A DNA stretch of 64,000 bases, taken from the sequence record PV654397.1; one strand, given 5' to 3'. Positions 23,150 through 24,185 of the stretch are shown here, one piece after another. This DNA comes from Escherichia phage WPEC5. Made by a program: the position numbers and the translations under genes. The notes beneath the pieces are model-generated. The model worked only from the letters and a program-made list of their open reading frames with translations, did no database searches and was not told the origin of the DNA. How positions within the stretch are numbered: position 1 is the first letter of the stretch; the number at the start of each line of letters is the position of its first letter.

Positions 23150-23494
23150 CTATCGATTTGGCATTTTATCTCGTAATTTCACAAGATAATCAATCACGGT
23201 ACATCCTGAAATAAAGGTAATATAAGTACTGAAAAATCCTACCAGAATAAAGGCAACAAGCGTACTCCCATTTGGTTCTTCAGCTTTAATACCAATGATA
23301 CCATCAGATGCAGTGAAAAATGTAGACATAAACGTTAGACAGATGTACATCACTAATAAGAATTCATGTTCTAATGACGGATAAAAACGGTCAAAGAGTT
23401 TATAAAATTTAAAGTACAGTAGGAGTATACCAACAAAGGCATAGAAAGTAAACAGTGTTGTTATGATATATGATATTAAATTTAAATTATACAT
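23150..23494 (-). CDS. small membrane protein, paralog cluster 2 (start trimmed)
   Basis: hydrophobic helices; C-terminal LRDKMPNR resembles cluster 1 tails. Confidence 0.6.
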   Translation of the reverse strand: MYNLNLISYIITTLFTFYAFVGILLLYFKFYKLFDRFYPSLEHEFLLVMYICLTFMSTFFTASDGIIGIKAEEPNGSTLVAFILVGFFSTYITFISGCTVIDYLVKLRDKMPNR

Positions 23495-23495
23495 C

Positions 23496-23843
23496 TCAAC
23501 GCTCCGGTAGATTATCACGTAAGGTTTTAATTCGATTATACAATTTCATTGCTACATTCCCAAATAAACCAGAACCCATTACTAAAATGTATGCGATGAT
23601 CATAGTAATAATTACAATAGTACCTAGACTGTAATGTACTGCACTGATACCCATTATTGTTTCTACAATGATGTGAGCAACAGAAATCATCAAAAGTACT
23701 ACTACAATTGGATGATTTGGATACATTCGGTTAAACAATGTTTTGTACTTAAAGAAGTACAGTACTCCACCAAATAAGAAGTACACAATGTAGATTGATG
23801 CAACGGCATAAGCAAACGCATTAGTGTAAAAAATCATTATCAA
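23496..23843 (-). CDS. small membrane protein, paralog cluster 2
   Basis: hydrophobic helices; C-terminal LRDNLPER. Confidence 0.65.
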   Translation of the reverse strand: MIMIFYTNAFAYAVASIYIVYFLFGGVLYFFKYKTLFNRMYPNHPIVVVLLMISVAHIIVETIMGISAVHYSLGTIVIITMIIAYILVMGSGLFGNVAMKLYNRIKTLRDNLPER

Positions 23844-23846
23844 TCC

Positions 23847-24185
23847 TTACTTTTCAGGGATTTTATTACGCCACTCATCGATGCGATGAAGCAGTTTAAA
23901 GAGCAAAAATATCGGAACAGTAGCTATCATAGTAGCAATTGTTAGCAATGTCAACACCGATACGAGATTTAATTCGTCAGTACTATATCCACATACCAGT
24001 GCTTCAATTATCCCCCACGTACATGCACTGAACATCAAAAATGAAATTGGTGCATCGTAGTATATGCGTTGATACAAGGTCGTGTATCGGAAGAATGCAA
24101 TAATGTAACAAAACATGTAATACACCCAAATTAACGATACTACATAAAATGATACCTTATTAATTAATTCAAAATGATGTTCCAT
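23847..24185 (-). CDS. small membrane protein, paralog cluster 2
   Basis: hydrophobic helices; C-terminal WRNKIPEK. Confidence 0.65.
   Translation of the reverse strand: MEHHFELINKVSFYVVSLIWVYYMFCYIIAFFRYTTLYQRIYYDAPISFLMFSACTWGIIEALVCGYSTDELNLVSVLTLLTIATMIATVPIFLLFKLLHRIDEWRNKIPEK

Follow-up and report, generated by a model that had tools for sequence, protein, structure and literature searches.

In a 64,000-nucleotide stretch of DNA from Escherichia phage WPEC5 (record PV654397.1; the whole stretch is called the window below), three adjacent genes at positions 23150-24185 encode small membrane proteins with similar C-terminal tails, and a like tail is found on a protein encoded at 14683..15030, within another group of small membrane protein genes. 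Do the two groups belong to a single family, and what could such a family do for the phage? The genes are named here B1-B3 (cluster 2, locus B) and A1-A7 (cluster 1, locus A), and all ten lie on the minus strand. The comparisons presented below firmly support B1-B3 as tandem paralogues of one family that also makes up cluster 1; judged by their sequences, the ten genes are one family with two subfamilies. The window is DNA of an Asteriusvirus (PBECO4/121Q-like) jumbo coliphage: over region 22800-24600 its identity is 99.4% to Escherichia phage WPEC3 and 83% to PBECO4 and 121Q, and all of the phage records that match this region (32/32) are Escherichia or Salmonella jumbo phages of 310-386 kb. 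In WPEC3, every gene of both clusters is annotated "hypothetical protein".

A sequence-only reading of the locus had described three adjacent membrane proteins of 112-122 residues. The adjacency and the membrane character were borne out; the sizes are those of the longest open reading frames (ORFs), namely 23150..23518 (122 residues, GTG start), 23496..23843 (115 residues, TTG) and 23847..24185 (112 residues, ATG). ATG codons with an upstream Shine-Dalgarno sequence, at 23494 for B1 and at 23837 for B2, are better-supported starts, and because these agree with the WPEC3 annotation, the real sizes of B1-B3 are 112-114 residues. The B1 ATG is located 1 nt past the B2 stop codon, and its GGAG Shine-Dalgarno sequence lies within the final B2 codons. 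A Shine-Dalgarno sequence precedes every gene of the family, with intergenic gaps of -1 to 9 nt, and in cluster A the stop and start codons overlap or are within 1 nt of each other. The ratio of nonsynonymous to synonymous substitution rates (dN/dS) between the window and PBECO4 was 0.11-0.40 over all ten genes (0.30 for B1, 0.17 for B2 and 0.22 for B3). Real, translationally coupled coding sequences under purifying selection are strongly supported by these features.

Relatedness was assessed by constructing one profile per orthologue group (from the WPEC5 window, PBECO4, phage A4 and Turkey5) and comparing all pairs by hhalign, with reversed alignments, in which composition and hydrophobic layout are preserved, as the control. 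Over the 45 real-versus-reversed comparisons, the control scores averaged 13 and never exceeded 18.8. Within locus B the scores were 64 (B1-B2), 71 (B1-B3) and 90 (B2-B3), with E values of 4e-11 to 4e-16. Between the loci, A6 scored 34, 40 and 46 against B1, B2 and B3, respectively (E 2e-5 to 9e-8, the last for A6-B3), and A7 scored 24-36 against the B genes. Within locus A, values of 52 (A5-A6; E = 9e-9), 38 (A2-A3; E = 5e-6) and 32 (A1-A3; E = 8e-5) were obtained, and pairs that cross the subfamilies described below reached 31 (A2-A6) and 28 (A1-B3; E = 3e-4); the links of A4 were marginal (21-22). The earlier proposal of one family at two loci about 8 kb apart is thus upheld by links that exceed the reversed controls, and by a distance of 7.8 kb between the clusters (15368 to 23150). 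A hidden Markov model (HMM) of the family, the search that had been suggested along with a joint alignment, retrieved exactly these ten genes from the window (E = 4e-27 for B3), the next ORF having an E value of 0.3.

A likeness restricted to a handful of residues at the C-terminus, which would have refuted the proposal, is not what was seen. When the last 14 residues were cut, B-B pairs still scored 49-60, A7-B pairs 24-34, A6-B2 25, A5-A6 35 and A2-A3 31, against a control maximum of 17.6. Only 15, a background-level score, was left to B3-A6, and that link therefore rests mostly on the tail and the third transmembrane (TM) helix, TM3. The similarity outlasts the removal of the tail because a second element is also common to the proteins: TM1 together with an aromatic-Phe-basic juxtamembrane motif of the "W-Y-F-K" kind (WYFK, YFFK, LYFK, FFRY, KFFC and others). 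In an alignment of 29 sequences all ten proteins were collinear, with the same three-helix layout, and the sole invariant residue, a Phe at the end of TM1, falls in this second element. Pairwise identity between the clusters is 15-27%. A neighbour-joining tree of the proteins of the four phages recovered each orthologue group as monophyletic (bootstrap 85-100%), with weakly supported deep branches, and separated two subfamilies: subfamily I, consisting of A5, A6, A7 and B1-B3, and subfamily II, consisting of A1-A4, with A4 grouping with the latter.

The tails LRDKMPNR, LRDNLPER and WRNKIPEK of B1-B3 and LRNKIPEE of A6 are present exactly as first described, and their likeness across the loci is genuine; the description needs refining in that LRxK(I/L)P marks one subfamily only (B1-B3, A5 and A6, with a variant in A7); the tail of A1-A4 differs. 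The subfamily I tail is (L/W)-R-x-K-(I/L)-P or a variant of it, and that of subfamily II is (I/M/F)-H/R-x-x-(I/L)-basic-KR(G). The pattern R-x-[KNSH]-[ILMVF]-P occurred in the last 12 residues of five of the 164 window ORFs of at least 60 residues, all five being family members (B1, B2, B3, A6 and A5), compared with a mean of 0.11 and a maximum of 2 in shuffled ORFs; the C-terminal motif is not a product of chance. A possible third locus, 48345..48710, has R-T-K-F-P near the C-terminus of its product, which contains a single N-terminal TM helix and no similarity to the family, and was set aside as a chance occurrence.

The tails also have a second role at the level of the DNA. At 7/9 junctions, the Shine-Dalgarno sequence of the next gene lies inside the last two to four codons of the upstream gene; examples of such ends are CCGGAGGAA, read as P-E-E, CCGGAGCGT, read as P-E-R, and CGAGG(A/G), read as R-G. 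Because they encode the ribosome-binding site of the following gene, the final tail residues (P-E-x) are doubly constrained and cannot be read as a signal of the protein alone. The R-x-K-(I/L)-P core sits upstream of the Shine-Dalgarno positions, and B3 and B1 retain P-E-K and P-N-R although in their case the next Shine-Dalgarno sequence comes after the stop codon.

Three hydrophobic segments occupy equivalent positions in each of the ten proteins. Lysines plus arginines, averaged over 100 family sequences, numbered 0.4 in the N-terminus, 3.0 in loop 1, 0.45 in loop 2 and 4.6 in the tail; by the positive-inside rule, this distribution indicates three TM helices in an N-out/C-in orientation. 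The N-terminus and loop 2 are accordingly predicted to be periplasmic, and the basic loop 1 and basic C-terminal tail cytoplasmic. The AlphaFold2 (AF2) model of B3, with a mean predicted local distance difference test (pLDDT) score of 72, has helices at residues 2-31, 35-41, 45-65 and 74-107; in it, TM3 extends into the tail and ends just short of the conserved Pro. Fold searches returned nothing specific.

How the proteins vary was examined relative to PBECO4 and phage A4. Pooled over the ten genes, dN/dS was 0.11-0.15 in the N-terminus, TM1 and loop 1 (0.14-0.15 in the latter two), 0.46 in TM2, 0.32 in TM3 and 0.31 in the tail. We infer that conservation is strongest in TM1 and on the cytoplasmic face (W/Y-F-K following TM1, and the R/H-x-K-(I/L)-P tail, which caps the helix), and that TM2 and TM3 are the most variable. 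The family genes as a whole are far more variable than their neighbours. Members are 63-91% identical to their PBECO4 counterparts at the protein level, compared with 94-97% for neighbouring genes; relative to phage A4, members are 23-44% identical (64% for A5), and the flanking genes 94-96% (96.5% for the ATPase described below). The identity boundary against A4 (L004) is sharp at 12929-15368 and at 23150-24185, which suggests a cassette-like replacement or a very fast divergence of the arrays. Copy number varies as well: there are 1 + 7 B-type and A-type genes in A4, 3 + 7 in PBECO4 and the WPEC5 window, and 3 + 8 in both Turkey5 and UE-S1. In Turkey5, locus B also carries an inserted unrelated gene.

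Both loci follow the same type of control element. A 30-nt element, TTGACTTCGGTC(R)GCCCTTTTTGCTATAAT, has six minus-strand copies in the window, compared with 0 expected by chance. With the GGG that precedes it, the element folds into a GC-rich hairpin that is capped by a TTCG loop and trailed by a T-run, and a TTGACT -35 box lies inside the stem. The module thus consists of a GGGTTGAC-TTCG-GTCGGCCC hairpin, a T-run and an extended -10 sequence, TGCTATAAT; the near-identical repeated module reads AAAAGGGTTGAC-TTCG-GTCGGCCC-TTTTT-GC-TATAAT. This combination of hairpin, T-run, -35 box and extended -10 leads us to predict a combined terminator and sigma-70-type promoter. A module occupies the equivalent place at locus B of A4, Turkey5 and TH47 and upstream of the ATPase in PBECO4 and A4, and equivalent places are also conserved in UE-S1. 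A related copy near 25600-25639 is of the terminator-only kind (approximately 25614-25639). In the related phage CBB, RpoD-like promoters cluster in a region of short ORFs regarded by the authors as early host-takeover genes (PMC5259590). Since both units follow conserved modules with predicted strong promoters of the host (sigma-70) type, both loci are probably transcribed early.

At locus B, no terminator was found between B1 and the two small genes downstream of it (22503..23140), which probably share its transcription unit. The first gene of this unit varies among the phages: in the WPEC5 window (24482-24895) and in Turkey5 it encodes a 137-residue protein with a signal-peptide-like N-terminus, and its counterpart in PBECO4 and UE-S1, found also near the B-type gene of phage Munch, encodes a T7 gp0.7-like protein kinase (24482-24895 compared with L003 12980-13654).

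The first gene of the cluster-A unit encodes an AAA+ ATPase, which matches PF00004 just over the cut-off of that family and phrog_1250, a group with no assigned function. It is predicted with a pLDDT of 93 and contains no TM segment. Its matches to RuvB, Bcs1, CbbQ, ORC/Cdc6, RFC and sigma-54 activators are those of a generic AAA+ fold and provided no functional lead; a search of PDB sequences gave no relative, and the PADLOC models were matched at the P-loop level only (E ~1e-3). The order of ATPase followed by array was seen in every examined lineage with an ATPase identity of at least 46%, namely PBECO4, A4, Turkey5, UE-S1, Munch and the contigs L008, L010 and L014; among the more distant ATPase homologues examined (~35% identity), none had an adjoining array. 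The contig L008, 74% identical in its DNA to Erwinia phage Hallingskeid, has a 256-residue ATPase followed by a single array of 12 members, and in L010 (ATPase 63% identical) there are 8-9 members behind the ATPase. In both contigs, members with LRxKIP-type tails come first and members with H-type tails (H-x-K-I-basic) follow, behind one ATPase. In the 67-nt spacer between the ATPase and A7 (15369-15435), a weak promoter-like site, TTGACT-17-TACTAT (15426-15398), and a short hairpin (GTACTAC...GTAGTAC) are present, and the spacer may act for the array as an internal promoter or as a processing site.

Farther relatives display the same arrangement. L014, a 361-kb metagenomic jumbo-phage contig with an ATPase 46% identical to that of the window, has at least nine three-pass proteins behind the ATPase (6785-10807), in an array interrupted by a 259-residue gene, and also a B-type gene near endonuclease V. 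The array proteins of L014 carry a juxtamembrane motif G-Y/W-L-T-x-x-D-Y-Y and tails of the form Y-F-G-R-K-R-N-K-I / K-R-G-K; because the family HMM recognises them weakly, they are probably members of a third and more remote subfamily. In Salmonella phage Munch, the T7-like protein kinase gene is preceded by one B-type gene (tail SDWRKNIPES), and 3-4 members stand behind the ATPase, approximately 4 kb from the B-type gene. The presence of the two-locus layout in such distant relatives indicates that it predates the genus. There is strong support for an origin of the family in successive tandem duplications that predate the split of the Asteriusvirus lineages, and equally for the long-standing occupation of two places: an upstream locus with one to three B-type genes and, immediately behind the AAA+ ATPase, a longer array.

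Scans of the family against Pfam, NCBIfam and PADLOC (eight members in the case of PADLOC) gave sub-threshold noise only, a profile search of PDB sequences gave one chance match (E = 0.75), and literature searches found no description of the family. In PHROGs, its members are scattered over seven separate families without a function (phrog_19285, which is that of B1-B3, and 19046, 19454, 27396, 33258, 26405 and 27618). The window genes match their PHROGs at 1e-47 to 1e-60 (2e-47 for B3 and phrog_19285), except A2, which falls in none, and B1, which matches phrog_19285 weakly (1e-3) yet is tied to B2 and B3 by the profile scores given above. The proteins of these PHROGs are the same as ours; they are kept apart there, and are joined here with a shared topology and a two-locus layout. 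A6 also matched phrog_16874, "membrane protein" (category moron, auxiliary metabolic gene and host takeover), over residues 23-100 with E = 6e-6, suggesting more distant relatives in other phages. A6 was the sole member to match it, the tail is excluded from the match, and the generic name of this PHROG conveys no function.

A word-indexed search of 5.8 billion proteins yielded 18 matches, of which the named ones belong to Asteriusvirus phages and Klebsiella phage phiKp_21. When 1.84 billion representatives were searched exhaustively with a profile, 55 clusters were obtained at E <= 1e-3; all except two truncated sequences are 99-130 residues long, match end to end and carry the same motifs, and all clusters whose source or genomic context was checked are jumbo-phage-like. 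Among phage records, the family was seen only in jumbo enterobacterial phages. These searches support a family that appears to be restricted to Asteriusvirus/Rak2-like jumbo phages.

Table 1. Features of the two loci and their surroundings, in window coordinates (aa, amino acids)
Feature	Position	Strand	Description
Downstream genes	22503..23140	-	Pair of small genes for non-membrane proteins of 85 aa and 126 aa, 3' of B1
B1	23150..23494	-	114-aa three-pass membrane protein, tail LRDKMPNR
B2	23496..23837	-	113-aa three-pass membrane protein, tail LRDNLPER; AAGGA Shine-Dalgarno 5' of ATG 23837
B3	23847..24185	-	112-aa three-pass membrane protein, subfamily I, tail WRNKIPEK
Upstream gene	24195..24470	-	91-aa soluble protein (phrog_37917), immediately upstream of B3; neighbour kept in PBECO4, A4 and Turkey5
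Locus-B module	24922..24958	-	Precedes the unit 24482..24895, 24195..24470, B3, B2, B1, 22883..23140, 22503..22883
Cluster-A terminator	12898..12924	.	Bidirectional terminator hairpin, 12-bp stem and T-run; closes the cluster-A unit
A1	12929..13300	-	123 aa, subfamily II, tail IHNTIRKKRML, phrog_27618
A2	13302..13664	-	120 aa, subfamily II, tail IHDRLGTRD, without PHROG match
A3	13666..14034	-	122 aa, subfamily II, tail MHQSIKYRKRG, phrog_26405
A4	14034..14348	-	104 aa, most divergent member, tail FRRNQKRKRGM, phrog_33258
A5	14348..14683	-	111 aa, subfamily I, tail LRAKVPDARY, phrog_27396
A6	14683..15030	-	115 aa, subfamily I, tail LRNKIPEE, phrog_19046; nearest cluster-1 relative of B1-B3
A7	15030..15368	-	112 aa, subfamily I, tail GREKIRGDF, phrog_19454
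AAA+ ATPase	15436..16206	-	256 aa; first gene of the cluster-A transcription unit
Cluster-A module	16235..16271	-	Identical to the locus-B module; precedes the AAA+ ATPase and A7-A1
All module copies	16235-16271, 18030-18066, 19903-19939, 20626-20662, 24922-24958, 31559-31595	-	Predicted terminator-promoter modules

Some further observations concern the surroundings of these features. Convergent with cluster A, approximately ten tandem paralogues of 372-396 residues with RCC1-like repeats occupy 719-12893 on the plus strand; relatives label them "regulator of chromosome condensation" or "DNA condensation protein", and the RCC1 block adjoins the array also in PBECO4, Turkey5, A4, UE-S1 and Munch. 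On the other side of the ATPase, 16700-17800 contains scrambled repeats of ~185 nt, direct and inverted, with 95-100% identity, among fragmented ORFs (16275..16595, 16838..17245 and 16898..17278); relatives have here one long repeat-containing "endonuclease" gene, and the patch reflects a true rearrangement or else an error of assembly. Four tRNA genes (Thr-TGT, Asn-GTT, Met-CAT and Ser-GCT) lie on the minus strand at 52786-55549, amid small early-type ORFs.

What might the family do? Its proteins are likely made early and inserted in the host inner membrane. In the scheme that we propose, early sigma-70 transcription of both loci would place three-pass proteins in that membrane, as a repertoire with one cytoplasmic-side property or partner in common, and the variable membrane helices would let each paralogue aim at a different host or competitor membrane target. 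Their most likely purpose, a speculative one, would be to keep superinfecting phages out or to weaken host defences associated with the envelope; this guess is made because it best fits the early timing, the membrane location, the conserved cytoplasmic face, the variable helices, the copy-number variation and the low-identity islands. As a whole, the view of a jumbo-phage paralogue family of early host inner-membrane proteins serving exclusion or counter-defence seems to us evenly poised between right and wrong.

Several points weigh against it. The proposed role is argued by analogy, from early timing, membrane location and variability, and the promoters at both loci are predicted ones. The family is annotated only as hypothetical, and Pfam, NCBIfam, PADLOC, PDB and fold searches gave nothing specific. 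The confidence of the B3 model is moderate, and the basic charge conserved in the loop and tail might serve only as a topogenic (positive-inside) signal and not as a docking surface; the terminal residues of the tail, moreover, overlap the next Shine-Dalgarno sequence at most junctions. Values of dN/dS are below 1 throughout and thus give no direct sign of positive selection, and the drop in identity relative to A4 could stem from recombinational cassette exchange, not from an arms race.

One could deny that there is a family at all. If the ORFs were spurious or decaying, with no function of their own, their exclusively "hypothetical protein" annotations, and the lack of any annotation for some of them in PBECO4, would be expected; purifying selection, Shine-Dalgarno sequences with coupled starts throughout, and orthologues that keep their length, motifs and order across genera make this barely credible. 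Slightly more credible, though still very improbable, is the notion that the ORFs are real and share no ancestry, their likeness arising from hydrophobic composition, positive-inside signals and embedded Shine-Dalgarno sequences. It can point to the overlapping Shine-Dalgarno sequences at seven junctions, to the low identity between the clusters and to the loss of the B3-A6 link without the tail; yet the A6-B and A7-B scores of 24-46 lie above anything that the reversed controls produced, A7-B and A6-B2 remain above them without the tail, the tail core precedes the Shine-Dalgarno sequence, B3 and B1 keep their P-E-K and P-N-R ends where no such overlap exists, both tail types are met in one array (L008 and L010), and the B-type gene of Munch has the same tail. 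A pure artefact of composition or of Shine-Dalgarno sequences is excluded by the reversed-sequence controls.

Other alternatives accept the family and assign it a different task. As holin- or antiholin-like lysis-timing proteins, the paralogues would form or regulate membrane lesions, and a length of 104-123 residues, three TM helices, a predicted N-out/C-in orientation and a basic C-terminal tail do fit class I. None of the ten proteins, however, matched a Pfam holin family at E <= 1 or any in NCBIfam, no dual-start motif is visible in the family sequences, and the ten copies stand in two units behind sigma-70-type, presumably early, promoters, with no endolysin or spanin nearby and with the AAA+ ATPase, small hypothetical proteins and, in relatives, the T7-like kinase as neighbours. 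That Rak2-like phages have an endolysin with an N-terminal TM domain (of the signal-arrest-release type), located elsewhere in the genome (PMC5259590), counts against the same idea. Given the genomic context and copy number a holin role is unlikely, and we give it little credence. A narrower form of our own model would make the proteins membrane adaptors of the co-transcribed ATPase, their loop and tail recruiting the ATPase ring and their variable helices picking substrates. This would suit the order of ATPase and array kept down to 46% identity, the fact that TM1 and the cytoplasm-facing loop 1 are the best-conserved parts of the family, the tail motif common within each subfamily, and a confidently folded AAA+ protein lacking a membrane anchor of its own; against it stand the position of the B cluster, 7-8 kb from the ATPase and in a separate transcription unit, the ~35%-identical homologues without an array, and the weakness of synteny as evidence within a densely packed early region, and we consider it possible but doubtful. 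Similarly tentative, and no less doubtful, is a broader proposal, namely that the ATPase and the diversified three-pass arrays, including the detached B-type genes, make up a hitherto undescribed module of Rak2-like jumbo phages that works early and at the membrane, in which a shared cytoplasmic docking motif (loop 1 and the R/H-x-K-(I/L)-P tail) would couple variable TM "specificity" subunits to one ATPase motor. Such a module, if real, would remodel or disable host inner-membrane targets, for the exclusion of rival phages or for defence evasion.

Returning to the family itself, the two loci contain one more uncharacterised multigene family such as large phages often carry in their variable early regions, and by itself it implies no new mechanism. 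The majority of jumbo-phage genes lack an assigned function, and small early membrane proteins are repeatedly overlooked; here, at least seven separate "unknown" PHROGs are joined into one family. They provide a testable set of targets for how Asteriusvirus/Rak2-like phages, several of which have been proposed for therapy, take over or shield the host envelope.

Two known systems invite comparison. Class I holins, such as lambda S (S105), are small three-pass proteins with an N-out/C-in orientation and a charged cytoplasmic tail. The present proteins resemble this type in their length of approximately 105-125 residues, their three TM helices and, by prediction, their orientation and charged cytoplasmic C-terminus; they differ from it in matching no holin family, in being multicopy and in belonging to a presumed early unit and not to a lysis cassette. 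Imm and Sp of phage T4 are small superinfection-exclusion proteins whose host-type promoters are active early; they reside in the inner membrane or envelope and are encoded in variable regions of large virulent coliphages. The proteins described here are likewise small, and their predicted early timing and membrane location would also match these two and the small early membrane proteins from plastic regions of T4-like phages; an exclusion role would make them functional analogues of Imm and Sp. Unlike Imm and Sp, with which it shares no Pfam or PHROG match, the family has three TM helices and comprises ten paralogues in two arrays, one of them tied to an AAA+ ATPase.

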